Shown here in pieces: positions 1,612 through 15,696 of a stretch of 55,921 nt of DNA. The translations under genes were made by a program, and so were the position numbers. Source of the stretch: a virus (lineage: Duplodnaviria > Heunggongvirae > Uroviricota > Caudoviricetes); IMG/VR virus record IMGVR_UViG_2541047806_000003, positions 1-55,921 of that record; one strand, 5' to 3'. A model generated the notes under the pieces. It saw only the letters and a program-made list of their open reading frames with translations. It had not been told where the DNA came from and made no database searches. The stretch's first letter is position 1. Each line of letters starts with the position of its first letter.

Positions 1612-1896
1612 TTAAGCCCATGCGCGGACGCCTGGATCTGGAACAATGAAAGGCTCAAGCTGAGAAATATCAACATCGTCACCAGTTATACGCACGTTGA
1701 CGTAATAACCTTTTTTCCCAATAAGTACAGGTGTCTCGCTTTCTGGATCGTCGAATACAAGGACAAAACCGATATCATCAATAAACACGGTTGACCAATT
1801 GGCATCCAGCAAGCCGCTATTAATCACAATGTCGTTGTATTGCTGTTTGTCAGTAAATTGCAAGCTAACGTCTTTCATGTTAACCACCTTAAACAA
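1612..1896 (-). CDS. Hypothetical protein downstream of tail fibre (possible fibre assembly/accessory protein)
   Basis: 94 aa ORF, start overlaps stop of tail-fibre gene (translational coupling); last gene before terminator. Confidence 0.45.
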   Translation of the reverse strand: MFKVVNMKDVSLQFTDKQQYNDIVINSGLLDANWSTVFIDDIGFVLVFDDPESETPVLIGKKGYYVNVRITGDDVDISQLEPFIVPDPGVRAWA

Positions 1897-3685
1897 TTTC
1901 GCTTAATTGCGCATCAGTTAATGCCTTATGCCATACTCGAAAATTTCTGATATGACCAAATAAATGACGTTGTCCTGTCGTTGTCTGACCACCGATACGA
2001 ATAGTTGCGGAGCTTTGAATATAAGTCCAGGTTGTTTTTATTTCGCTGGATATACGTCCGTTACTTATTGCACATGTCAATTGATCTGCTTTTACACGCA
2101 TCCCCATAACCATTTTTTCCAGCCCGGCATTTTCATTTATTCGTCGGTCTGAACCACTTATATTGCAATACGGAAAACCGTCGTACCCACCTGATGAACC
2201 AAACCCCATTTCGATCCCCGCTCCGGTTTGATGACCGCTGATATTAAAAACACGCGGTGCTGCATTTGGCGTTTTATACCAGTTCTTATGTACCTCACAA
2301 AGAACCGTAAAAGGAAGATTATAAAGGTTATTCTTGATTGGGACTGTCACCATATCGCTTGCCCGCGTTGCCGGTGCCGTCCCCGTAACAATAAAAGATG
2401 ATGCGCCTGTACCAGCCTCAATCTGTGGAGTGGTTACATCGAGATAATCCCCTGATGTAACCATCTGCCCTGTATCCGGAGAATACTGGACAAAACCACC
2501 AACCGTATTTTCTGTTGTATCTGCTTTTAATGTAGCCTCAAAAAATATCCAGCCAGTTGCATCATCCTTAACAGACCTTGCTGTAACACGGCTTGTCTGA
2601 CCTGTCTTGCTAATTATGCGGGTGGTAAGGTTCAGGTTTGCTGCTCCTATTGATGTCCTTACCTCCCCATCATAATGTTCAAATAAAATACGAACGGCGA
2701 TATTATCAACTTCACTTTTTACCCGACAGGATATAGTTACATGCTTTTCGTCCCCTGAAGTATCAACCCCTCCGGCACTCGAATACAGTCCGATAATGGC
2801 ATGCGCTTTACTTGTACCAACAATCGAATCCTGTACGACAAACCGGCCATAATTAAACCCGAAACTATCTGCGCCTGTTTCTGTAACGTCCAGTGAAGTT
2901 GACTTATTCCACTTCGAAGGGTCTGTACTGTTCTGGAAGAAGTTCGTTCTTTGTCCCTCAATAAGCAGGCCATCACACTCAAATCGCGGCTCATTAATTT
3001 CCGCCGTTTTCAGTTCGCCAGATTTGTTGATATATGTTGCCGTTGATGCGCGACTGAAATTAACCTGTTTATCACTGGCAACCTGAACCACATTATCGCC
3101 AATCTTCACTTTTTTATAACCCGGAGAATAGCCCGTAATCATATCCAGCGAATCATTAAAGGGCATCCACACATCCGGCAGCGGCTGTAAAACATACGCG
3201 TAAGGCTGCGCCGTCTGATTGGCGTATTCGTGGGCTTCGTCTCTGTATGTCTTAGCTGAATCGGCTGCGCTTGTCGCTGTTGTTGCAGCGTTGGTTGCAG
3301 TGGTAGCTGATTGTGATGCTAATTTTGAGGCTGAAATCACATCTTTGTTGTCGCTAAAAAATTCAACTGCGTCCGCTATTTCTGATTCTTTGCCCTGATA
3401 GTAACGCAGTGTTTCGGCGACATCCTGAGCAAGACCATCCACAGAGATCGAATCTGAAAGCAGGATGCTAAATTTAGTTCCAGCCGGAATAGCCGGACTT
3501 GCCGCAGGAGTTACCGACAAACTTGTTGCGCTTTTTACCTTTGTGATTGAAAAAATCTGCACCGGATCGCTAATGGCAATAAGAGTGCAACCCACTCTGA
3601 TCAGAGATAATGCGGCGTTGAATTCAGTCCCTGCCCCGGTAACTGTGTTTCCGCTAACAGCTATAGTGCCTGTTGTGTAAATCAT
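1889..3685 (-). CDS. Distal/side tail fibre protein
   Basis: 598 aa; N-terminal MIYTTGTIAVSGNTVTGAGTEF and Ala/Thr-rich repeat ATTATNAATTATSAADSAKTYRDEA typical of tail fibres; position after J-like gene. Confidence 0.7.
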   Translation of the reverse strand: MIYTTGTIAVSGNTVTGAGTEFNAALSLIRVGCTLIAISDPVQIFSITKVKSATSLSVTPAASPAIPAGTKFSILLSDSISVDGLAQDVAETLRYYQGKESEIADAVEFFSDNKDVISASKLASQSATTATNAATTATSAADSAKTYRDEAHEYANQTAQPYAYVLQPLPDVWMPFNDSLDMITGYSPGYKKVKIGDNVVQVASDKQVNFSRASTATYINKSGELKTAEINEPRFECDGLLIEGQRTNFFQNSTDPSKWNKSTSLDVTETGADSFGFNYGRFVVQDSIVGTSKAHAIIGLYSSAGGVDTSGDEKHVTISCRVKSEVDNIAVRILFEHYDGEVRTSIGAANLNLTTRIISKTGQTSRVTARSVKDDATGWIFFEATLKADTTENTVGGFVQYSPDTGQMVTSGDYLDVTTPQIEAGTGASSFIVTGTAPATRASDMVTVPIKNNLYNLPFTVLCEVHKNWYKTPNAAPRVFNISGHQTGAGIEMGFGSSGGYDGFPYCNISGSDRRINENAGLEKMVMGMRVKADQLTCAISNGRISSEIKTTWTYIQSSATIRIGGQTTTGQRHLFGHIRNFRVWHKALTDAQLSEIV

Positions 3686-3746: not shown

Positions 3747-3882
3747 CTTTGGGCTTATACATAATGTATTTTTTGATCTATATCAACATACGAAATGATA
3801 GCTTCTGCGGTGATTTGCTCATCGGATGGGTGGATCATCACGAACAACAAATGACAGTAAAACAAACAGTAAGGTGAATACA

Positions 3883-4128
3883 ATGAAAAAACTAATTGTT
3901 GCTTGCATCTTATCAGCTCTGTCTTTTGGTGCTTTTGCTTCTGTAAATTCGACAGATAAGAGTGATGCTGGCACTGCTCAATATGGTGATACTGGCCTTG
4001 ATAACCAACGTTCGAGTTATTTCAATACTGACTCATGGAAAGAAAAACAACTACAAGGTAAAATTATTGACAGTGAATGTAATTTACCTATCCATTTTTC
4101 TGGTATAAATGATGGGTGTAAAAAATAA
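3883..4128 (+). CDS. Small secreted protein (moron between J and tail fibre)
   Basis: 81 aa from ATG 3883 with SD AAGGTGA; N-terminal signal peptide MKKLIVACILSALSFGAFA; opposite strand to tail genes; own terminator. Confidence 0.5.
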   Translation: MKKLIVACILSALSFGAFASVNSTDKSDAGTAQYGDTGLDNQRSSYFNTDSWKEKQLQGKIIDSECNLPIHFSGINDGCKK

Positions 4129-4140
4129 AAACAATGCATA

Positions 4141-4167
4141 AAAAACGGGGCTTATGCCCCGTTTTTT
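4141..4167. terminator. Bidirectional rho-independent terminator
   Basis: Stem AACGGGGC/GCCCCGTT, loop TTAT, A-run upstream and T-run downstream. Confidence 0.6.
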
Positions 4168-7100
4168 ATGCTGTCGTTGATGTTCTAAATGATCCGGTGC
4201 CTCTTGCTACTATCATTGTTGGAGAATACAACGCGGTACAATATGCGTATCCTTCAGATGATGATGTTTGAGGACAATATATTTTCCCGATAATATCTGA
4301 TGCTTTTAAACCAGAAAAAGCGCATTGCACTGTTAATGTGCATCCACCATAAGGCACGTAATATGAAATTGTTTTGTTTTTATCTCCGCAACTAAACGTT
4401 ACGTTATAAGTGGATCTATATTCACCAGACATTAATGAAATAGTCGCCATAAGCATAACTGATTTCGTCAATGCATTATCCGTGCTGTCTTTATATGTGA
4501 TGGTTGCGCTATAACTTCCGTTATGCCCAAGCACTCGATCTGGACCAACCCCCATGTTAGCAACGTCACCGACAAATGACTTTGCCTCTACTGTACCTTT
4601 AAACTTCCCGCTTGTGGCCTGAATCTCACCAGTGAATTTACCAGATGTTGCGTACACCGTACCGCGTACAGTGACGTTGTTGAACTCCGCATTGCCGTTT
4701 TTATTTAGCATCCAGCCAGCCGAACCAGCTTTATAGTTGGTTGACTGAATTTGCTGCGCAATCTTCGCGGTAGTGATTGATGCGTCTCTGATCCACGCAT
4801 CACGGATGTAGCAAGCACCGTTAGTAACATAGAACGGGGTCTGATAGGAGCCACCTGCCGCAGTCATAAGCACGAAACGGTCAACGAGGAAAATACACTG
4901 CGATTGAACGTTAGTCCCGCTACCAGTAAGGCCGAGCGACATTCCTGTAGCGTATTTCATACCGTTTTTATCAGTGGCAATCTTAATTGAATATGACGCA
5001 TCAACGTTACCTTTGAAGTCAGTCAGTGCTTTTGATGTCGTTTCTATCGCCGTTGTGTTTCCGTTAATAGTTACTTTCAACTGGTCGATTCTGGTTGACA
5101 ATGCCTCGTCTGCCGTTGCCATAGCCTGTGACCATTCCGTGATGCTTGAGTTTACATCGTCGAAAGATGCCGAGATCTGGCCAAATTTTTCCGCGCTTGA
5201 TGTTTCATGCGTAGAAAGTGCAGTTGACACTTCGGATACTTTCGAATTAATCGTACTGGTAAGCGATGAGTTAAGGCTGCTGATTGCGTCAGTGCGTGCA
5301 TTCTTCTCATCTGCGATCGCTTTATCCATCCTGGTTACGTTGCTTGTCACCTTGCTATCGAGCGTGGAAATTGACGCATTAACCCCGCTAATAGCTTCTG
5401 CGCGTGCGCTCGCCTCATCTGCGATTGCTTTATCAAGACGGGAAACGCTCGCGTCGGTTTTGCTTTCAAGACTACTGACGCTGGCGTTAACGTTGCTAAT
5501 AGCTTCTGCGCGTGCGCTCGCCTCATCTGCGATTGCTGTGTCTACCCTTGCTATTTCCGCTTTTGTTTTTGTTTGTCCTTTCCTGTATTTCGCCTCAATA
5601 ACAGTGCTCATCTTGCTTTGCGCCATTGAGTTATTAATAAGCGCCAGAGATGCGTTTTGCAGACTTGCTTTCGCCTGATCTATCTCGTCGCTGTTTTTAT
5701 CAACCTCACTTTTAACGCCGCCAAGCGTCGCGCTGATACCTGATATCGCCTGAGCACGTGCGCTTGATTCATCAGCGATAGCTTGATCAAGACGGCTAAC
5801 ACTGGCATTTGTGTTATTTTCAAGCGTTGTTAAATCAGCTTTAACCACTGTTATTGCGTCGCTTCTTGCCTGCGTTTCATCTGATATTGCATTATCGAGG
5901 CGCTTAACGCTGGCGTCAGTTTTCTTGTCAAGTGTTGAGATACTTGCGTTCACGTCGCTGATAGCCTGAGTACGCGCACTTGTTTCGTCTGCAATTGCCT
6001 GATCAAGACGGTTTACGCTGGCGTCAGTTTTCTTGTCAAGATTGCTTATTGAGGCATTTACACCGTTAATAGCTTCAGCGCGGGCGCTGGCCTCGTCAGC
6101 TACTGCGCGTTGCACATTAGAGATCTGACCTTTAAGGTTTGTGTCCATCACATTCATTTCTGCCGTGATGGTTTCCAGTGATTCCGCTGTCGCTTTTTTC
6201 TCTTCAGCGATAACGTTGTCAATGCGGTCAATTTCCGCTTTCGTCTCTGTCCTGCCTTTCTTGTACTGAGCGGTAAGAGTTACGCGAGTGTTAGTCTGTG
6301 CAAGCGAGTTATTAATAAGAGCAAGTGAGGCGTTTTGCAGACTTGCTTTTGCTTGCGCCAGTTCGCTGCCAACTTTTTCGCTAGACACCTCCAGCGAGTC
6401 GATTCTCGACTCATGCTGTCCAATATCATCGGCGTTTTCCTTAACTTTTTTATAAAGATCTTCCGTTTCTTTTTTGAGCGTATCAGTATCAGCTTTTATT
6501 GATCCTGTTTCTATGGTTAGGTTGTCAGTTTCAGTCCTTAAATCGTCAGTTATGTTGGTCAGATTATCAGTTGCAGTTTTGAGGTTGTCAGTAGCAGTTT
6601 TAAGGTCATTCGTAGCGCTTTCGATAAGATCAGTGCGGTCGCCTAGATCTTTAATGTCACCAACCATTTCTTTAAATTGTTTGGAATTCATTACGTCTTT
6701 GGTGACGTAATCGGTAATTTCATCAAAGTTTTCTGTTGGCTTACCTGACGCTTCCACAAAGTCAGACACACCAAAAGCGTTACGCGCGCGCACATAAACG
6801 TAATATGTGTGACCTGTATTCATGCCGCCAAACGTCCACTGATGACCACGCCCAGTATATTGTGCTTTAGTGGTTATTGATGCCGGATCAGTGATCTGCG
6901 TTTCACCTGAGTAATAAAACTCGTAACTGGTATCAGTGGTGAGCGTTGTTCTGCTGATCGGGTAAACTGTAGCCTGGAATACACCGGGAACCCAATTAAC
7001 GCCAACTGGGGCCGCTGGTGCGCCAATAACCAGATCGACAATGCTTTCCGCACCCTTCATGCCCGTGTCATTTCTGCCACGAATGCCTAATGAGTAGTTG

Positions 7101-9136
7101 CCAGCATCAATGCCATAAAAATCATAACTGTAATTCGTGGTTTCGTAGCTTTTAACTACAGCGCCTTCGGCGTTATACACGCGAATCTCAAAGGTCAGGC
7201 GACGCGTTGTCGTCTGTGTTTCCCATGTTGCGCGACATTGAACCGTTTCAGATCCAACGTTTAACACCTTCAGATTTTCAATGTTCGGCACGCGGAAGTG
7301 ATTAAGCGTGTCGTTATTGATCTCGAAGATTGCGCCATTATCGACTACGGCCTGCTTATGTGGATCATGCTGTGCGGCCTCGATGGTGTATACGCTGTTA
7401 TTTTCTGTTTCTGCTACACTGGTGATTCGACATAAAACGGGTTTTGCTGCGTTGGTTGATACAGCAAAAACAGTGCCGTTACGAATCCACGCCGGGGCGG
7501 CTGCAAGGGTGATAATGTTCCCGTTAACTCCGATGATCTGGTGTTTTTTAAATTTACCATCGCTATCAAGTAAGCTGATGGTGTCGCCAGCCGCGATATA
7601 TTCAGAATCAACCTTGTCGACCGTGATCGCTCTGCCATTGTTCGCCACGATGCGACCGCCTAAACGAGCGCCTGCGCGATTATTATCGAGGATCTCGATT
7701 ATATCCCCCGGCGTAAAGTGAATGGCGTCACGGGCCATTTTAAATGTGAATTTTGACGGCTCGCGTTTCGCTGTTTCGATCAGCCATTTACCAGCGCGGT
7801 GCGCTTGCCCGCGTGAAGTGCAACCGAACGCCTCCAACGTGGTTTCGTTATAACCATCACGGGCGATTAGTTTATCATCTGCGACATATTCTTTTGATTG
7901 CTCCCAGCCGTTTTCAGGGTCAGTCCAGGATACGATCACGGCGTTGTAGCATTCTGCGCGTGCGATACTTGAACGAGTAAACGCGCCATCAACGACGTTT
8001 GCATTTGTGATGGTGGCGATTGGATCTTGTGGCGCATCAATCATCACGGTAAGACGTTGTCCGTCCCATAACGCGATACCACGGAACATACCTGCGATGT
8101 TGTCCAGTAGGTCGCGGGCGCTCATTTGCTCCGTAATGTAAGCGTTAAGCGTCATGCGAGGTTCAAGGCCACCATAGCCATCATCAACCAACTGATCGCA
8201 GTATTGAGAAAGCACGTACAAAGCGCCATCATCAACATCAATGTAACCAGCATGTCGAGCAAGTCCAAAGCGCTCGTTTTTAACCAGATACCGGAAAAGC
8301 CATGCAGGGTTATTGGTATACGCCTTTTTAAATCCACCAAGCCATAAACCTGAATATGTGCGCGTTTCAGGGTTGTAGTTGTCAGGCACATCAACAATCA
8401 GGCCGCGAAGGTGATAGGTGCGGGTAGGCGTATCAGTATACTGATCATGGTCAATTACGGCGCCAGCTACAGCGGTATGAGGATAAGACAGATTATCATC
8501 TATTATTTCGCTGTAACTACTCCACCGCGTATCATTCCGCAATAGATCGCCGTTGCTGTCTGGTGTTATGCGACGAACGCGAATATCAAACGGTTTTTCA
8601 TCCGGCGCTTTAATGATGTGAGCTTCCAGGTATTCACCGCTTTGTTTACCAGGGCCAATGTGTATGTCTTTAATCAGCGACCACGTAGAAGATGATGACG
8701 GTTTAACATCAACCATCAACATGACGGATGTATTATATTGATTGCCCTTTTCATCTGACTGAACGAGAGCATCAACACCAAGATTCAACCTGACGCGGGT
8801 AACGTTTGGATCTGAAACAGTCCTGATTATTGGTGTGTCGTGAGTTACCTTTGCGTTGACAATAACGGTTGACTCAATGGCGTTAAAACCATTAATCGGC
8901 GATTGGTCAGCCGTGCCGTTGCGCCAGGCTATACTAATCCCCGGAATTGATGTATTCCCGTTTGCGTCAGTAACAGGAGTGTCATTAAGCATCACGTCAT
9001 TCAATGGCGCTTTCTGGTTTACCGGACCGTATATCGGCCCTTCGCTGAGAATATCTAAAACACGATAAAACTGTTTGTGATACAGGTTATCGTTCAATAA
9101 TGTTGGTGTTTTGGCTTTGCCGCCGCCGCTACTCAT
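4166..9136 (-). CDS. Host-specificity / central tail fibre protein (lambda J-like) with long coiled-coil repeat extension
   Basis: 1656 aa; N-terminal two thirds resemble lambda gpJ (e.g. YSGLWLGGFKKAYTNNPAWLFRYL); residues about 920-1400 are heptad-like repeats (DASVSRLDKAIADEASARAEAISGVNASIS...). Confidence 0.85.
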   Translation of the reverse strand: MSSGGGKAKTPTLLNDNLYHKQFYRVLDILSEGPIYGPVNQKAPLNDVMLNDTPVTDANGNTSIPGISIAWRNGTADQSPINGFNAIESTVIVNAKVTHDTPIIRTVSDPNVTRVRLNLGVDALVQSDEKGNQYNTSVMLMVDVKPSSSSTWSLIKDIHIGPGKQSGEYLEAHIIKAPDEKPFDIRVRRITPDSNGDLLRNDTRWSSYSEIIDDNLSYPHTAVAGAVIDHDQYTDTPTRTYHLRGLIVDVPDNYNPETRTYSGLWLGGFKKAYTNNPAWLFRYLVKNERFGLARHAGYIDVDDGALYVLSQYCDQLVDDGYGGLEPRMTLNAYITEQMSARDLLDNIAGMFRGIALWDGQRLTVMIDAPQDPIATITNANVVDGAFTRSSIARAECYNAVIVSWTDPENGWEQSKEYVADDKLIARDGYNETTLEAFGCTSRGQAHRAGKWLIETAKREPSKFTFKMARDAIHFTPGDIIEILDNNRAGARLGGRIVANNGRAITVDKVDSEYIAAGDTISLLDSDGKFKKHQIIGVNGNIITLAAAPAWIRNGTVFAVSTNAAKPVLCRITSVAETENNSVYTIEAAQHDPHKQAVVDNGAIFEINNDTLNHFRVPNIENLKVLNVGSETVQCRATWETQTTTRRLTFEIRVYNAEGAVVKSYETTNYSYDFYGIDAGNYSLGIRGRNDTGMKGAESIVDLVIGAPAAPVGVNWVPGVFQATVYPISRTTLTTDTSYEFYYSGETQITDPASITTKAQYTGRGHQWTFGGMNTGHTYYVYVRARNAFGVSDFVEASGKPTENFDEITDYVTKDVMNSKQFKEMVGDIKDLGDRTDLIESATNDLKTATDNLKTATDNLTNITDDLRTETDNLTIETGSIKADTDTLKKETEDLYKKVKENADDIGQHESRIDSLEVSSEKVGSELAQAKASLQNASLALINNSLAQTNTRVTLTAQYKKGRTETKAEIDRIDNVIAEEKKATAESLETITAEMNVMDTNLKGQISNVQRAVADEASARAEAINGVNASISNLDKKTDASVNRLDQAIADETSARTQAISDVNASISTLDKKTDASVKRLDNAISDETQARSDAITVVKADLTTLENNTNASVSRLDQAIADESSARAQAISGISATLGGVKSEVDKNSDEIDQAKASLQNASLALINNSMAQSKMSTVIEAKYRKGQTKTKAEIARVDTAIADEASARAEAISNVNASVSSLESKTDASVSRLDKAIADEASARAEAISGVNASISTLDSKVTSNVTRMDKAIADEKNARTDAISSLNSSLTSTINSKVSEVSTALSTHETSSAEKFGQISASFDDVNSSITEWSQAMATADEALSTRIDQLKVTINGNTTAIETTSKALTDFKGNVDASYSIKIATDKNGMKYATGMSLGLTGSGTNVQSQCIFLVDRFVLMTAAGGSYQTPFYVTNGACYIRDAWIRDASITTAKIAQQIQSTNYKAGSAGWMLNKNGNAEFNNVTVRGTVYATSGKFTGEIQATSGKFKGTVEAKSFVGDVANMGVGPDRVLGHNGSYSATITYKDSTDNALTKSVMLMATISLMSGEYRSTYNVTFSCGDKNKTISYYVPYGGCTLTVQCAFSGLKASDIIGKIYCPQTSSSEGYAYCTALYSPTMIVARGTGSFRTSTTA
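4940..6380. repeat. Intragenic tandem repeat region within J-like gene
   Basis: Exact 41-bp repeat TAATAGCTTCTGCGCGTGCGCTCGCCTCATCTGCGATTGCT at 5388-5428 and 5507-5547 plus many degenerate copies encoding the coiled coil. Confidence 0.6.
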
Positions 9137-9149
9137 GGTTTTTCTCCTG

Positions 9150-9680
9150 TTAACTTACAACGTCTAAGGCGTCTCTATTGTTGCTTGTGTCTATGCCTAA
9201 CGATCCGACGTTTGAACCTATTTTCATTTCACCTAATAGTATTGGCACTGGTCTACCCTGGCCCACCTTGTTTTCAATGCTGGTGTAGGTGTTGTTCGTT
9301 ATGGTGTTATCTTGTGCGCTTTCTGCCGATGTTTTTATCTTCATGTTGCGGGACATAAAGATTGAGAACGCAACGCTAACCACCGAAACACCAATCAGGA
9401 TCCAGCCTACAACACCAATCCCAGCAATACCGCCTTCAACTACTGGCGCAATAATGACGGTAGTTCCGTCAGGGTATTTACTATTAACCGCTGCCGGGGC
9501 CGTCTTTTCGTTATAATCTTTCCCGGCAATCCGTAACCGCAAAGGTGTATTTAAAAAAGCCTTCTTGAATTCCTGATTCTGCGCGGTCAATAAGCGAAGC
9601 CCTTGCGCTGGCGTTTCAACGTTTAAACACACTTTGCTGTAATATCTTCGAAGATTGCCCGTAAATCTAAATTTGAGCAT
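9150..9680 (-). CDS. Tail assembly protein (lambda I-like); 5' end uncertain
   Basis: 176 aa, C-terminal hydrophobic segment, position between K-like and J-like genes; ORF overlaps K-like 3' end by 58 nt. Confidence 0.65.
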   Translation of the reverse strand: MLKFRFTGNLRRYYSKVCLNVETPAQGLRLLTAQNQEFKKAFLNTPLRLRIAGKDYNEKTAPAAVNSKYPDGTTVIIAPVVEGGIAGIGVVGWILIGVSVVSVAFSIFMSRNMKIKTSAESAQDNTITNNTYTSIENKVGQGRPVPILLGEMKIGSNVGSLGIDTSNNRDALDVVS

Positions 9681-10354
9681 TTATCAGATCTCCATATTGA
9701 ATGCGTTTGTCGAACATAAGCGGGCCGCATTTGCTCGCGGCGGCTTAACAGTCCGGCATTGTCATGATGCAAAACAGTGTTATCGCCCAGGTAAATCATC
9801 GCGTGGCATGGGTCAGCGCCTTTGAACGGCTGCCTGATTATTACGTCACCTGGCTGGATGCTTTGCGCATCAACCTGATAAAACCCGTTTCGCGGCAAGT
9901 TTTTTAAATACAGGTTTTCACCGCGAAGCCACCAGCCATCAAGGCGCTCGAAGTCCGGTAGATCCACGCCACAAAGGTGATATGCGTCGCGGAAAAGCGC
10001 GTAGCAGTCTGTTTTCCCGTGCTCAAATTTTCGGCCTAACAGGTGCGCTACCGGGCGGAATTTTCTAACCCTGCCACCGGAGCATAAAAGCCACGGGAGG
10101 CCGGAAATAACCTGTTGTTGTCGATCCAGCGCAGACAATACCGGAATATCATCAACGTGAGAGTGAAAAACGGCGGTTATAACGCCTAATTCGTCAGCTT
10201 TGATGTAATCGTCCGGCGAAATTTTGAAGCTGTTGTATGGCGTTTCAGATACGTTAGCGCACGGGTAAAAATATTCGTTATTTATCACCAGGCCGCAAAC
10301 TTCCTCACGCGGGTGAGCTGCGGCGTAGCGAACCATTTTGTCTTCAAGTGCCAT
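9623..10354 (-). CDS. Tail tip assembly protein (lambda K-like; MPN/JAMM plus NlpC/P60-like)
   Basis: 243 aa; JAMM-like motif AVFHSHVDD; position between L-like and I-like. Confidence 0.8.
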   Translation of the reverse strand: MALEDKMVRYAAAHPREEVCGLVINNEYFYPCANVSETPYNSFKISPDDYIKADELGVITAVFHSHVDDIPVLSALDRQQQVISGLPWLLCSGGRVRKFRPVAHLLGRKFEHGKTDCYALFRDAYHLCGVDLPDFERLDGWWLRGENLYLKNLPRNGFYQVDAQSIQPGDVIIRQPFKGADPCHAMIYLGDNTVLHHDNAGLLSRREQMRPAYVRQTHSIWRSDKCSNLDLRAIFEDITAKCV

Positions 10355-10356
10355 AA

Positions 10357-11061
10357 TTAGCCCACCTTACTTGAACCGGGGAAACAGGAAATTGGTAACG
10401 GATTTGGACGCGGGAAACGTAAACGACAACCGCTCAGACGGTGGCTACATCTGTCGGCTTTAGGATCGCTTGTCGGCTCGTCTTTATCGTTTGCTACTGG
10501 TCCGCCAGCGTACATACACCCGTCGCCTCTGTATTGCCACTGGCAAACGTCAGCAAGGATGGTGCGCCCAGGGATGACAGCTTTATCTGCATCAATTGGC
10601 GTTGACAGTTCATACTGCACCTGATCCGCTGTTTCTTCGCTCATTGCTTCAACGACGTAAAAAGATACAGCCTCAATAGATGGATCTGCGTCTGGATTAC
10701 CGTTAGGGAAGTTAACGGCGTCAAGATATTTCACCTCCACCTGGCGGCGCGTAACCTTCATTCCTCTAAGGTCGTTAAAATCGTTGTTCATCCCCGTAAT
10801 GAGTCCGCCGATATTGGCTACAACCATTTGAGGCCGTGAATAAACACCCTCATTTTTCATTTCGAAGCCCGTCGCCTCGATCGGGTAGCTGTTGTAAGCT
10901 ACTCCCTTCCAGATAACCTGGCCGTAATAGCCGTTCGCGCCGGAATGGAAGCGGATAACCTCGCCTCCCAGGGGAGTAAGGTCCAGTTCAAATAAGTCAA
11001 TGACCGCGCCAACTCCGGCATCGACGGAATCAATAATCATCTCTCTCGGAATATTGCGCAT
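10357..11061 (-). CDS. Minor tail protein (lambda L-like)
   Basis: 234 aa; C-terminal Cys cluster CSHRLSGCRLRF as in gpL; gene order M-L-K-I-J. Confidence 0.85.
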   Translation of the reverse strand: MRNIPREMIIDSVDAGVGAVIDLFELDLTPLGGEVIRFHSGANGYYGQVIWKGVAYNSYPIEATGFEMKNEGVYSRPQMVVANIGGLITGMNNDFNDLRGMKVTRRQVEVKYLDAVNFPNGNPDADPSIEAVSFYVVEAMSEETADQVQYELSTPIDADKAVIPGRTILADVCQWQYRGDGCMYAGGPVANDKDEPTSDPKADRCSHRLSGCRLRFPRPNPLPISCFPGSSKVG

Positions 11062-11079
11062 TTTCTCACCTTGTCATTT

Positions 11080-11095
11080 TGTGATCTGCGTCACG
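11080..11095. promoter_or_regulatory. CRP-like palindrome TGTGATCTGCGTCACG upstream of moron 2
   Basis: 9/10 match to TGTGA-N6-TCACA consensus; about 60-70 bp upstream of candidate promoter start. Confidence 0.3.
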
Positions 11096-11116
11096 CTAAA
11101 TCATACCAAAATGGAT

Positions 11117-11145
11117 TGATCGTGGTTTTTACAATATGTATATTT
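11117..11145 (+). promoter_or_regulatory. Candidate sigma70 promoter for moron 2 (TTGATC-N17-TATATT)
   Basis: -35/-10 hexamers with 17-bp spacer read directly from sequence. Confidence 0.3.
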
Positions 11146-11190
11146 TACTCAAACGAAGGGGAAGTTAACAAAATGGCGCGGAGGTGCGTT

Positions 11191-11379
11191 ATGACTGAAA
11201 AGCTATGGAAGTTGACGGTATTCATGACAGACGGTAGGGAAAAGGTTATCGCCCTGTATGACGACGAGGGGGAAGCATTGGTTGACGCGCTTTTACTTGC
11301 TGAGGATGACCGCCTTTTGGGATACCAGATCGAACCTGTCAAATATGATGCTAACAAAAATGAAAAAATACAGTCTTGA
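11191..11379 (+). CDS. Hypothetical small acidic protein (moron 2, gene 1)
   Basis: 62 aa from ATG 11191 with SD GGAGGTG; in-frame upstream ATG at 11174 also possible. Confidence 0.4.
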   Translation: MTEKLWKLTVFMTDGREKVIALYDDEGEALVDALLLAEDDRLLGYQIEPVKYDANKNEKIQS

Positions 11380-11707
11380 TGTGTGGTTAAGTGGTAGCAA
11401 GGAGTGTTTCGGATTATTTGATAGCGAAGAAGTAGCCCTGGAAGAAGGCAGGATTCTTGAATGTAGTTTAGGCCATCCAGTGAAATATACTGCTAATCCG
11501 GTACAGATAGTTGATGAGGTGGAAGATATGAACCCGAAAGATATTAATGTTAACTTCAATGTTAATTTTGCAGACTCTATGGATCAGTCTTGCCCTGGTG
11601 AAATACACGCAAAAGGTTTCCCGGCTGACGATCCAGAAGCAAAACGCGAATACGAAAAAGCTGCGAAAGATTTCTGTATCGATAACCTTTCAGCATTCGA
11701 TAAATAA
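11360..11707 (+). CDS. Hypothetical acidic protein (moron 2, gene 2)
   Basis: 115 aa from ATG 11360 (MKKYSLDVWLSGSKE...); overlaps gene 1 stop region. Confidence 0.45.
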   Translation: MKKYSLDVWLSGSKECFGLFDSEEVALEEGRILECSLGHPVKYTANPVQIVDEVEDMNPKDINVNFNVNFADSMDQSCPGEIHAKGFPADDPEAKREYEKAAKDFCIDNLSAFDK

Positions 11708-11716
11708 GGCGGCAAC

Positions 11717-11965
11717 ATGGGGCGGCGCAATCACGGTGATTATGTGTACACGTTGAAACAGGCCGCCCGCCTCATCGGTTATCATGAACACGAATTTATT
11801 GATTTGCTGATTGAGCGCGGGATACTGTACCAGGTCTGCTTAACGCTGTACCCTAAAGCGAAATACCTACAGGAAAAGTTATTTATCATCATGACGGATG
11901 AAAACCAGGTTAATCACTCATTCGTCACTGATAAGGGCGTTAATTATCTGCGTGATAACTTATAG
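11717..11965 (+). CDS. Small helix-turn-helix DNA-binding protein (moron 2, gene 3)
   Basis: 82 aa; YTLKQAARLIGYHEHEFIDLLIERGIL resembles excisionase/MerR-type HTH. Confidence 0.5.
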   Translation: MGRRNHGDYVYTLKQAARLIGYHEHEFIDLLIERGILYQVCLTLYPKAKYLQEKLFIIMTDENQVNHSFVTDKGVNYLRDNL

Positions 11966-12125: not shown

Positions 12126-12319
12126 ACGCCATCAACCAAAAATAAAACCTCCTTCCCTTCCCGGGATCTACACCCAACGTACCCATCACCAACGTCGTGA
12201 AGATACCATATATCGCCGTTGTCAGCTTTTACAGTAAGGTCGTTGATCTCATAGTCGTCAAACAATGTAAAAGCGTAAGTTTTGTCAACTACACAAGTCC
12301 CGTACATAACAACCCCCAT
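12122..12319 (-). CDS. Small protein, distant member of paralogous family also found at 32.3-33.9 kb
   Basis: 65 aa; shares D-x-G-D/H-x-W-Y motif (ADNGDIWYLHD) with ORFs 32353, 32573, 32822, 33034, 33725; start abuts M-like stop. Confidence 0.45.
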   Translation of the reverse strand: MGVVMYGTCVVDKTYAFTLFDDYEINDLTVKADNGDIWYLHDVGDGYVGCRSREGKEVLFLVDGV

Positions 12320-12672
12320 TAGCCAACAACTTGCTCAAACGTTGCGTTTAGCGTGTACAAAGGCCCGTCTTTAGTCATGCTCCATTGCCGACAGACAAAA
12401 AGCCTTTGCACGTTATCCATTGACGGCGACCAGTAAAAAGCCTCGACCGCGCCGCGCGCCCTCAAGAATGCTTCCGCCTGGATTGCTACGTTTCCACCAT
12501 CACCACATCCGGCGCTACTGCCTTTAAACACCAGGGTGTAGCTATCAAGCAATGGATTGATACCTTTTACCTGTCTTTGCTCATAACCATCGCCCAGCTT
12601 AACAACAGATACGTCTGGCTTCCTGGTCACGCTGTAGCTTCTTTGCGGCGTCCATCTGAACACTTCCGGCAT
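12319..12672 (-). CDS. Minor tail protein (lambda M-like)
   Basis: 117 aa; VKLGDGYEQRQ and C-terminal ATFEQVVG match gpM pattern (lambda ends AEFEQVVN). Confidence 0.85.
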   Translation of the reverse strand: MPEVFRWTPQRSYSVTRKPDVSVVKLGDGYEQRQVKGINPLLDSYTLVFKGSSAGCGDGGNVAIQAEAFLRARGAVEAFYWSPSMDNVQRLFVCRQWSMTKDGPLYTLNATFEQVVG

Positions 12673-13326: not shown

Positions 13327-13359
13327 AACCCCGGCATTGCACCGGGGTTTAGTTTATTT
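13327..13359 (+). terminator. Rho-independent terminator of moron 3
   Basis: Stem AACCCCGG/CCGGGGTT, loop CATTGCA, then T-rich tract. Confidence 0.6.
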
Positions 13360-15696
13360 GCGGCGAGGTTGCAACATTCCGCCTGGTCTTTGAGATTCCC
13401 TTGTTATCATTTTCATGGCTACACGTTCCATTGTTAATTCAAGTCTGCGGCTGTCTTCGTCGCTGAATCCGTTCGTGGTCTGAATGCTGATACTGACAGG
13501 CATACTAATACCGCCACCGCCGCCAATATCACGGCCCGGAATAACTCTGCCGTTCTCGCCAGGGATCATATATTGATTGCCGTTAGATGTCTGGAATAGC
13601 TCCGGCCTGTTGTGTTCCCCTACGCGGTACATATTACCACCAATGACGCTACCACCATTAAAGCGACCGCCGCCGAAAATTGACGTAGCCAGCGACATGA
13701 TCGCAGTGAGCGCCGCCGAACCAGCCGCCGCCCAGCTACCGCCAGTTGACGCCGCAGTTGCCGCCGCTGCTGGGGCCGCCGCCGCAGCAATGCTTCCCTG
13801 AGCTGCTACCGCGCTTGCTGTTGTACTTGTTTGCGTGGCCTTGCTTTGTGTCTCCATCATGATCTGATCTGCTATCCAGTTTGCAGCTATGTCTGAGAGT
13901 CTGTTACCGATATTGCCGAGTATATTGCTTCCTAAGTTAGCAAAAACATCACTCAATGATTGAGTGCCGTTTAACAGGCCAACAAGCGCATTACTCATTC
14001 CGCCTTTAAGGCCATTAACACAATCACCGATAAGGCCGTTTGTGTCGCTTTGCGCCTGCCATTGTTCCCATTTCAGATCGCGGATCTGTTGCTCATAGGC
14101 TAACAATTCCTGTTTCTGTTGCGCTTCAGTAGCGCCCAGGTCTATAAGCATTTGCTTACGGATGGCCCATTCATTTTGCGCCTGCTGGATGGGGTCAACT
14201 TCGCCTTTTAGCTGATCCATCGGGCTTACTATTTGTGACCATTTATCACGCAATTCATCTACCGGAATTTGTGCTAATTCTTCTTTCAGTTCCTTGCCGA
14301 TCCCTTTTTGCGCGGCGCGGTACTCAAGGAGCGTGATTTTACCCTGGGCAAATGCAGCATCAATGGCCTTGCCGTTCTCCAACGCTTTGCGCATGGCGGC
14401 GGCGTCTTTGTTGTACTGATCAGAAACGCTTATACCTTTGTCACCAAGCCGATCAGCTTCCGATTTCTTCTCTTTTTTCTGTTTTTTCGGCTTGTCTACT
14501 GGCTTGTCGAATCCGGTAATCGCTCCGTCATTGGCAGCATTCTGTTCATTTTTCCTTGCTTCTTCTGTAGCCTGGATTGCTGCGGTCAGATCATCCTGTA
14601 GTTGCATGACCTTGCCAACGGTCTTCCCGTATTTCTTCTCGTAGTTGCTGTTATATTCGTCGGTTTGCTCTCCTACTACCTCCTTCATCCATTTATAGCC
14701 ATCCATTAGCGCCTTGATTGGCGTCACCATTGCGATGATCTTCTCTGCCACCTCTCCAGCCTTAACAGCCACATCATCAAACATGTCGATAAATTCGCTA
14801 CCAGCCGTTTTGAGTGTGTCGAAGCAGGTTTTAGCGAATTTAGCGCCATCGCCAAGCCCTTTAACGCCTTTCGTGATCAAGTCGATAGCTGAAACAACGC
14901 CATCTGACACGCCAAAAAGATCATCCAACTGCTCAACAAGGCCCATAATTTCTACTTTAAGCTCATTGATAGCCATGCCGGATGTGCGCGGCAACTGAGC
15001 AAACTTATCGTTTGTTTCCTGCGTAGCCGCCTGTATTGCGTTAACCATCCTTTCAGCCGTGATCTTGCCGTCCAGCATTTCGGCGCGGAACTGGCCCATT
15101 GATAATCCCATATGGCGGGCCATTGTTTGTACGATGGTCGGCGTATTTTCAAGCAGGCTGTTAAATTCTTCGGCACGAAGAACACCGCCGTCGATAGACT
15201 GACGGAATTGACGCATTGAGTTAGACATCTGTTCCGCTGACGCGCCGCCTAATGCACCCATTTTCTGAATAGTGCCAACCAGGTTAAGCAATTGCCCTTC
15301 CGTAGCGGAGGTGTTTTTTAGTGAGATAGCCAGGCCTTGCCATAATTCGCCAGTATCTTTCAGGCTCTGCCCCGTCTCCCTGGATATTGCTTTCAGGCCG
15401 TCGAAAACCCGTCCGGCGGACTCCGCATCGCCCGTAAGCATTTTGATTTTTACGCGAAGCATTTTTGCTTGCTCCGCCATATCCATAAATTGGCGCACAG
15501 CCTCCGCAGCAATTAGCAGATGGATAACCCTGGTCAGTGCCTTGATGGATGTTTTCAGGGTGTTTACCTGGCGGTCAGCCTGTTTTGCGCCGCGCTCTAT
15601 ACGATCAAAGGCCTGGTCTGCCTGTCGTTGTGCAACGAGAAGTTGACCAGTTTTCGCATCAACTTCGTAATAAATTGTACCTACACTGGTAGCCAT
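13354..15696 (-). CDS. Tail tape measure protein
   Basis: 780 aa, alpha-helical, Ala/Gly-rich C-terminal part, position between chaperone and M-like. Confidence 0.85.
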   Translation of the reverse strand: MATSVGTIYYEVDAKTGQLLVAQRQADQAFDRIERGAKQADRQVNTLKTSIKALTRVIHLLIAAEAVRQFMDMAEQAKMLRVKIKMLTGDAESAGRVFDGLKAISRETGQSLKDTGELWQGLAISLKNTSATEGQLLNLVGTIQKMGALGGASAEQMSNSMRQFRQSIDGGVLRAEEFNSLLENTPTIVQTMARHMGLSMGQFRAEMLDGKITAERMVNAIQAATQETNDKFAQLPRTSGMAINELKVEIMGLVEQLDDLFGVSDGVVSAIDLITKGVKGLGDGAKFAKTCFDTLKTAGSEFIDMFDDVAVKAGEVAEKIIAMVTPIKALMDGYKWMKEVVGEQTDEYNSNYEKKYGKTVGKVMQLQDDLTAAIQATEEARKNEQNAANDGAITGFDKPVDKPKKQKKEKKSEADRLGDKGISVSDQYNKDAAAMRKALENGKAIDAAFAQGKITLLEYRAAQKGIGKELKEELAQIPVDELRDKWSQIVSPMDQLKGEVDPIQQAQNEWAIRKQMLIDLGATEAQQKQELLAYEQQIRDLKWEQWQAQSDTNGLIGDCVNGLKGGMSNALVGLLNGTQSLSDVFANLGSNILGNIGNRLSDIAANWIADQIMMETQSKATQTSTTASAVAAQGSIAAAAAPAAAATAASTGGSWAAAGSAALTAIMSLATSIFGGGRFNGGSVIGGNMYRVGEHNRPELFQTSNGNQYMIPGENGRVIPGRDIGGGGGISMPVSISIQTTNGFSDEDSRRLELTMERVAMKMITRESQRPGGMLQPRRK

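Follow-up and report, generated by a model that had tools for sequence, protein, structure and literature searches.

The 55,921-nucleotide (nt) stretch analysed here (IMG/VR virus record IMGVR_UViG_2541047806_000003, positions 1 to 55,921; hereafter the window) encodes at 4166-9136 on the minus strand a J-type central tail fibre or tip attachment protein of 1656 amino acids (aa), in which a predicted helical shaft of 551 residues (aa 812-1362; 5051-6703, like all parts of J on the minus strand) lies between the Ig_J_second and Phage_Tail_Tip domains. The shaft is composed of 7-residue and 36-residue repeats together with linker modules, and the number of repeats differs between prophages that are otherwise nearly identical. 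J-like fibres with helical shafts were already known, as were variable repeats in the J proteins of mEpimmI phages (2025; PMC11893012). The anatomy of the units, the alleles with one and two additional perfect copies in near-isogenic prophages, the independence of shaft length from the type of receptor-binding end, and the match of every unit to the fold-switch signature of pyocins are new. We regard a length-variable coiled-coil shaft, homologous to those of pyocins and phage T1, as the best-supported model; the complete proposal, in which this shaft is also a lengthened metastable fold-switch element, is one for which our confidence and our reservations are about equal.

Organization of the J protein and its repeat shaft

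The J open reading frame (ORF) is open along its whole length and encodes a lambda-J-type central tail fibre protein of an mEpimmI-type (mEp021-like) Escherichia coli prophage. Five Pfam domains are recognized, all above their gathering scores: FNIII-A_GpJ (aa 88-214), Phage-tail_3 (335-492), Ig_J (609-707), Ig_J_second (709-811) and Phage_Tail_Tip (1363-1500); they are matched with E-values of 1e-15 to 3e-40 and are found in the same order in lambda J. The hub, FNIII and Ig part (aa 1-811; 6704-9136) matches lambda gpJ (8iyk) among the PDB sequences with an E-value of 8e-187. BLASTP aligns J aa 1-850 with lambda 1-857 (38% identity in an alignment of 866 aa) and aa 1360-1525 with lambda 841-997, and in lambda J about 26 residues separate Ig_J_second from the tip domain (818 and 845). 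The alignment and the domain spacing thus place some 510-550 extra residues at this junction, which bears out the preliminary description of this DNA, where J was read as a J-like protein of 1656 aa made longer than lambda gpJ by a repetitive helical block. None of the families in the searched library copies of Pfam and PHROGs matches aa 812-1362.

The block had been placed at 4940-6380 (aa 919-1399, about 480 residues) and its repeats called heptad-like. The block is real, but its true extent is aa 812-1362; the earlier interval omits the heptads at 6446-6634 and extends into the beta tip domain by some 37 residues (about 110 nt). The term heptad-like is loosely right, although the repeats inside that interval are 36-residue units with a periodicity of 3.6 and the true heptads lie just outside it.

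Reading from the N-terminus, the shaft consists of nine heptads followed by two modules, each a linker (L) and a run of 36-aa units (R), in the layout L-R4-L-R3. The heptad array (aa 835-897; 6446-6634; TDLIESA, TNDLKTA, TDNLKTA and so on) includes a tandem array of 21-nt period at 6566-6616, found with Tandem Repeats Finder. Linker L1 (aa 927-976; 6209-6358) reads AQAKASLQNASLALINNSLAQ...YKKG...KAEIDRIDNVI, also written ASLQNASLALINNSLAQ...YKKG...KAEI, and is followed by a degenerate 36-aa unit (aa 976-1011; 6104-6211; IAEEKKATAES...) that is in register with the next units and has an equivalent in mEp021, mEp010 and mEp044, as found with a hidden Markov model (HMM) of the unit. Block 1 (aa 1012-1155; 5672-6103) contains four 36-aa (108-nt) units, spaced by 108 nt and scoring 47-51 bits each with the unit HMM. 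Linker L2 (aa 1156-1201; 5534-5671) is a second copy of the linker, with 83% DNA identity to L1 across 59 nt; its repeated motif, DQAKASLQNASLALINNSMAQ...YRKG...KAEIARVDTA, begins at aa 1153 and so overlaps the last unit of block 1. Block 2 (aa 1202-1309; 5210-5533), with three units, is the site of recent copy-number change, and a final non-repeated helical segment (aa 1310-1362; 5051-5209) leads into the tip domain.

At the DNA level, direct repeats with a start-to-start spacing of exactly 108 nt span 5268-6112, and there is a higher-order repeat of 678 nt (5619/6297). The longest exact repeat is 43 nt, whereas in shuffled versions of the gene the longest averages 11.7 nt and never exceeds 14; its two copies, 108 nt apart, lie in unit 2 (5387-5429) and unit 1 (5495-5537) of block 2. 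An exact 41-mer reported previously falls within this repeat; it is present at 5388 as reported, but its second copy is at 5496 rather than 5507. Tandem Repeats Finder recovers only 1.9 copies of the 108-nt period because the older units are only 51-69% identical in DNA, and a protein HMM of the unit was required to find them all.

Unit conservation was computed on 87 distinct 36-aa units from 22 proteins. Positions 1, 12, 15, 19, 22 and 33 are L, I, V, M or F in all 87, positions 7, 17 and 36 are always Ala, and four charged positions are nearly as constant (E4 100%, R8 89%, R32 93%, D34 97%). The core spacing would be 3-4-4-3-4-3-4-4-3-4, or 11+7+11+7, giving ten helical turns per 36 residues. 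Searching 1.84 billion representative proteins with the unit profile returned 32 clusters at an E-value of 1e-3 or below, six of them at 1e-10 or below, and from so few clusters the unit appears narrowly distributed. Those matches scanned with Pfam include another long J-like protein and, weakly, a trimeric autotransporter adhesin.

The shaft is predicted to be helical throughout most of its length. In an AlphaFold2 (AF2) monomer model built with a 66-sequence alignment, aa 1145-1351 form one unbroken helix ahead of the beta tip domain, with predicted local distance difference test (pLDDT) values that mostly exceed 90. The single-sequence model gives helices at aa 819-959 and 964-1185 (pLDDT about 80), with breaks at aa 960-963, within the YKKG segment of L1 (958-963), and at 1186-1191, within the YRKG segment of L2 (1184-1191); L2 is helical without a break in the model made with the alignment. 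There is neither Pro nor Cys among the 551 residues. The hydrophobic periodicity is 3.5 in the heptad block (aa 812-908) and 3.6, with a secondary peak at 2.4, in aa 909-1362, and a canonical heptad coiled coil with an a/d core is therefore confined to aa 812-908 and does not describe the shaft overall.

The J proteins of lambda and T1 and their pyocin counterparts are trimeric, and by analogy the shaft is presumably a three-stranded coiled coil. With a rise of about 0.15 nm for each of 533 helical residues, it would measure approximately 80 nm when fully extended, each unit contributing about 5.3 nm. A model with helices folding back at the linkers was set aside as less likely, as relatives with a single linker exist and the segments, at 141, 222 and 160 aa, are mismatched in length.

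Some further features of this region were recorded. The linker segments, (T/S)xxRVTLTAQYKKG and STVIEAKYRKG (6209-6358 and 5534-5680), loosely resemble the strands with which the tip domain begins (VDASYSIKIATDKNG, aa 1378-1392), and judged from this likeness the linker-plus-units module may have arisen by partial duplication extending into the tip domain. The other long J-like protein matched by the unit profile among the representative proteins, P0096 (1922 aa), has 11 stretches that fit the profile, with Phage_Tail_Tip at its far C-terminus (1769-1903), an arrangement that would imply a long repeat shaft with a separately encoded receptor-binding part. Precomputed Pfam tables place PF28217 just upstream of Phage_Tail_Tip in the truncated relatives P0003-P0005, and this family may cover part of the shaft. 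A GTG-initiated ORF of 234 aa runs antisense to the J repeats (4974-5678, plus strand); it is most likely not a gene, and instead a by-product on the other strand of the repetitive codon pattern rich in Ala, Ser and Asp.

Copy-number variation in related prophages and phages

A megablast comparison matches seven phages, mEp013, mEp515, mEp021, mEp010, mEp044 and mEp554 of the mEpimmI group together with MagusPhagus, and the window J is matched in 35 of 5426 complete E. coli genomes. The N-terminal 800 aa of J are 92-97% identical to the mEpimmI J proteins and 91.5% identical to that of MagusPhagus. These matches and the N-terminal identity identify the window as an mEp021-like E. coli prophage, and the six mEp phages share with it a variable repeat region and a variable C-terminus. 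They also share the M-L-K-I-J gene order and the architecture of heptads, linkers and 36-residue units, whereas the window allele (nine heptads, L-R4-L-R3, 1656 aa) and its C-terminal end differ from those of all six, the nearest of which has an end with about 35% identity. The description of the mEpimmI phages (Front Microbiol 2025) mentions 'repeats of different length (positions 950-1,475)' and notes that the J proteins vary in size; the unit structure, the copy-number alleles, helicity and any link to a fold switch were left unresolved there (PMC11893012).

Two prophages differ from the window J in unit count only. Strain GN04592 has one extra 36-aa unit (1692 aa) and strain LP-26-E1-261 has two (1728 aa); in both, the N-terminal region is 99.9-100% identical to that of the window and the C-terminal end is identical. 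The extra copies are identical at 108 of 108 positions to the first unit of block 2, and the two alleles are the expected product of unequal exchange across the 43-nt exact repeat. Length variation by recombination between repeats, as proposed in the preliminary description, is thus seen in these two strains. A third strain, FAH, carries the C-terminal end of the window and lacks exactly three heptads, one unit of block 1 and two units of block 2.

A comparison of copy number across related prophages had also been suggested, and it reveals wide variation. Among 21 relatives there are 2-14 units, 4-11 heptads and one or two linkers, with J lengths of 1358-1914 aa; these numbers are taken from annotated complete genomes and phages, since homologue searches gave mostly contig-truncated fragments of fewer than 700 aa. 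Sorted by C-terminal type, the unit counts are 4, 7, 7, 8 and 9 for the window type, 4, 9, 12, 12 and 14 for the LamB type, 4 and 12 for the OmpA type, and 2, 2, 3 and 11 for a fourth type. Of the phages that depend on OmpA, mEp021 has 12 units and mEp515 has 4; of those that depend on LamB, mEp013 has 4, mEp010 has 9, and mEp044 and mEp554 both have 12. Shaft length is thus independent of the type of receptor-binding domain, and the earlier idea that the repeats may set host range fails insofar as it concerns receptor choice, as the number of units does not track OmpA or LamB dependence. The older units, despite their divergence in DNA, retain 10-12 near-invariant positions in the protein, which indicates purifying selection for the structure of the units but not for their number.

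Relationship to pyocin and T1 shafts and alternative explanations

In the F7 pyocin a shaft of 163 residues converts to a beta-prism on receptor binding, and the conversion is reported to be required for killing; the switch region, with five or six strands per chain, is marked by the motif SxSxxMxxLxS in strands of alternating direction, a buried salt bridge between an acidic residue and an Arg at i+4 has been described, and an equivalent switch is predicted in diverse siphophage fibres (PMC12874032). Within J aa 812-1362 this motif or its reverse is matched 28 times, as compared with 7.3 +/- 2.6 (maximum 16) in 2000 shuffles. Across the 36-residue blocks forward matches (unit positions 7-17) alternate with reverse matches (28 to 2'), at spacings of 21 and 15 residues; the key positions of the motif are 91-100% conserved over the 87 units, and the E4/R8 pair of the unit is consistent with the buried pair of the pyocin. 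The heptad block contains a single match, and lambda J has none in the forward and three in the reverse direction, none of them in its fibre region.

Among PDB sequences, the shaft and tip domain together match the F2 pyocin (25vf, residues 911-1185) with an E-value of 1e-29, as well as T1 gp33 (9l9p) and the J-like gp24 (23gd). The helical part alone matches T1 gp33 with an E-value of 3e-7 by way of an IADE-x-x-AR motif, and the last helical segment (aa 1310-1362) aligns with the helical shafts of both the F2 pyocin and T1 gp33. The AF2 monomer places a long helix directly N-terminal to the beta-prism tip domain, and the central fibres of the F-type pyocins (F7; F2/PyoF10, 25vf) likewise have a J-like hub with a helical shaft directly before such a domain. 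The pyocin shafts are, however, about 163-260 residues long with no visible tandem repeats, whereas that of the window has 551 residues, 7- and 36-residue repeats and copy-number polymorphism. In the window J itself includes the receptor-binding end, a role that falls to separate proteins in the pyocins, and a fold switch has been demonstrated for the pyocin only. T1 gp33 (PMC11945409) is J-like too, with an IADE-x-x-AR helical region before its tip and a flexible C-terminal fibre longer than that of lambda, but it has 1172 aa and about 150-200 helical residues, and no copy-number-variable array of 36-residue units has been reported in it. T1-like or lambdoid fibres of TLS, Shfl1, HK639 and mEp390 are predicted to fold-switch. 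Lambda gpJ (8iyk, 8xck) shares the five Pfam domains in order and a similar tip domain (Foldseek E-value 8e-5), and differs in its gap of about 26 residues and in having the LamB-binding Ig_GpJ_C domain. The stalks of trimeric autotransporter adhesins (YadA_stalk) are, like the shaft, rich in Ala, Ser, Thr, Asp and Asn with non-heptad repeats, and they are trimeric. J has no Pfam match to YadA_stalk, head or anchor families, and the unit profile gives only weak partial matches; as judged from these searches, the likeness is compositional and periodic, not one of homology.

In the model that we favour, the shaft would connect the hub of the tail tip with two distal parts, the beta tip domain and the receptor-binding end. 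A 36-residue unit with 11+7+11+7 spacing would be expected to have nearly no net supercoil and, being ten helical turns long, could be gained or lost whole with the helical register preserved. Copy number would shift by unequal recombination or slippage between adjacent units, with the 43-nt exact repeat as the current substrate, generating natural alleles that share a receptor-binding end and have shafts expected to be longer or shorter by about 5 nm for each unit. The shaft would be a lengthened version of the metastable element of the pyocins, plausibly setting how far the tip reaches, and once a receptor is bound it could convert to a compact beta-prism that helps to open the tail tip.

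Several observations weigh against the fold-switch part of this model. Lambda and T5 do without a coiled-coil/beta-prism switch, which is therefore not universal (He et al. 2026, PMC12874032). The enrichment of the motif is inflated, as the units are copies of each other and the 28 matches are not 28 independent events; the shaft has some 24 motif-bearing segments, with strands about 18 residues apart, closer together than in the pyocin. The match of the helical part alone to the F2 pyocin is marginal (E-value 0.03), and the AF2 monomer runs, with alignment or single sequence, gave helix only and did not recover a beta-prism. Next to a tail of some 130 nm, a fully extended shaft of about 80 nm, which in strain 190 could be as long as about 125 nm, would readily be noticed; the mEpimmI paper mentions no such fibre and gives no tip-fibre length (PMC11893012). 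Phages with 4 and with 12 units both plate on K-12, and no particular length is therefore essential there.

A stronger version of the same idea, which we think doubtful, regards the repeat shaft in its entirety, some 450-530 residues in each chain, as one giant fold-switch spring. In the virion each unit would be about 5.3 nm of helix; receptor binding would turn it into a beta-hairpin about 1 nm thick, one layer in a triangular prism, so that the fibre, roughly 80 nm long at first, would contract to about 15 nm and draw the tail tip onto the outer membrane; 36 residues would then be the smallest insertion that keeps both helical register and strand direction. If this were true, the alleles of 2-14 units would constitute a ready series of stroke length and stored energy.

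Of the other explanations, a static spacer is a possible one, though clearly less probable than the lengthened fold-switch shaft: the coiled coil would be stable and never refold, holding the receptor-binding end off the tail tip, for instance so as to get past O-antigen or capsule, with copy number tuning its reach. The confident AF2 helix with no beta alternative, the wide natural range of lengths behind an unchanged receptor-binding end, and the ability of lambda and T5 to function without a fold switch (PMC12874032) all fit a spacer. Against it, the alternating small and hydrophobic pattern of the 36-residue units, with invariant Ala at 7, 17 and 36 and the E4/R8 pair, exceeds the constraint expected of a plain spacer, and the heptad array of the same protein lacks this signature. 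The alignment of the tip-adjacent shaft with the pyocin switch segment likewise speaks against it. The shaft might instead serve as a docking platform, the linkers or units binding the fibre protein encoded at 1889-3685 (minus strand) and their number setting the count or place of side fibres, a proposal that would fit with either a spacer or a switch. There is precedent in the F2 pyocin, where side fibres dock at a Gly kink (G955) of a three-stranded alpha-helical shaft (PMC13455828), and in the F7 pyocin, where they are also attached to the alpha-helical shaft (PMC12874032); the single-sequence AF2 helix breaks at YKKG and YRKG of the two linkers, and in every relative, as in the window, J is followed by a fibre gene. 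We nevertheless consider docking unlikely as the explanation of the repeats, as L2 is a continuous helix of high confidence in the model with the alignment, relatives have one or two linkers irrespective of the type of downstream fibre, and the variation in the number of 36-residue units is left unexplained.

Neutral instability, in which units expand and contract simply from the repetitiveness of the DNA and length is without functional consequence within wide limits, appears improbable. It would account for the very recent perfect duplications and for the infection of K-12 through shared receptors by phages with 4, 9 and 12 units (OmpA- and LamB-dependent mEp phages all plate on this host; PMC11893012), but every observed change involves whole units, and even the diverged older units keep their 10-12 near-invariant protein positions. 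That the repeat block has been collapsed or expanded in assembly, a concern raised in the preliminary description, can be dismissed with near certainty. Draft assemblies do break here, in that 43 contig-truncated 'partial' proteins (cluster P0004) start at aa 1220, just past the 43-nt exact repeat, and the repeat thus interrupts short-read assemblies and gives rise to truncated J annotations. However, in no fewer than four complete and independent E. coli genomes (2017C-4173W12, M1/5, MS 21-1 and CB7286) J is present at 99.9% identity and with the same length of 4971 nt, seven sequenced phages show equivalent shaft architecture, and the reading frame is intact.

How a non-contractile tail, once it has touched a receptor, comes to open its tip at the membrane is a matter of current study, and to our knowledge the conversion of coiled coil to beta-prism in pyocins is the only demonstrated energy source of such a kind. 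The J shaft described here is an unusually long and variable example of a known helical shaft type, and it offers natural near-isogenic alleles (+0, +1 and +2 units around the window; 2-14 units in the group) with matched receptor-binding ends and, for the mEp phages, known receptors (LamB and OmpA). This allelic series makes the relationship of shaft length to reach through O-antigen or capsule testable, as well as the switching of a lengthened shaft. The repeat could also act as a fine-scale typing marker for these gut-prevalent prophages.

Receptor-binding end, gene context and neighbouring genes

The Phage_Tail_Tip domain (PF09327, E-value 3e-40; aa 1363-1500; 4637-5050), the beta domain of the central straight fibre, matches the lambda central tail fibre (8xck and 9wca) in a Foldseek search of the PDB, a search that is informative for the tip domain only. 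The remaining C-terminal segment (aa 1501-1656; 4169-4636) is the presumed receptor-binding region. No match to the LamB-binding domain Ig_GpJ_C (PF12421) is found in the window J at an E-value of 0.1 or below, whereas lambda J matches it at 5e-74, and the receptor-binding end is therefore of another type than that of lambda. It has about 35% identity to the LamB-type end of mEp013, is unrelated to the OmpA-type end, and is identical in FAH, GN05505, GN04592 and LP-26-E1-261.

The genes upstream of J are arranged as in lambda, all on the minus strand: the tape measure gene (TMP_3, 13354-15696), an M-like gene (Phage_min_tail, 12319-12672), an L-like gene (Phage_tail_L, 10357-11061), a K-like NlpC/P60 gene (NLPC_P60/JAB, 9623-10354) and, directly upstream of J, an I-like gene (9150-9680). 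A terminator-like hairpin (4136-4171, minus strand) overlaps the J stop codon, and the mEp records annotate a terminator at the equivalent place.

Directly downstream of J is a small convergent gene (3826-4128, plus strand) with a likely internal ATG start (MKKLIVACILSALSFGAFA followed by SVNS). Its 81-aa product has an N-terminal signal peptide and corresponds to WP_000734009.1 (246 nt), which is conserved beside every window-type J, and it occupies the slot where mEpimmI phages have superinfection-exclusion lipoproteins. As its Cys is too near the N-terminus for a typical lipobox, the product may be a secreted protein rather than a lipoprotein. Beyond it, 1889-3685 (minus strand) encodes a fibre-like protein of 598 aa with a weak Laminin_G_3 match at its C-terminus only; its homologues carry the RefSeq name 'phage head spike fiber domain-containing protein', and the same slot in relatives holds very different proteins (pyocin knob/S74 peptidase fibres and tail fiber domain proteins). 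This product may be a side fibre and, if so, could attach to the J shaft.

Between the M-like and L-like tail genes, and so within the tail-tip module, a cluster of small ORFs lies on the opposite strand (11071-11965, plus strand); its equivalents in relatives include genes for a KilAC-domain antirepressor and hypothetical proteins, and the arrangement is moron-like. A putative HNH endonuclease gene is absent from between I and J in the window and in the remaining relatives examined, and is present there in mEp515 and mEp021 (1937-2503 of each extracted locus).

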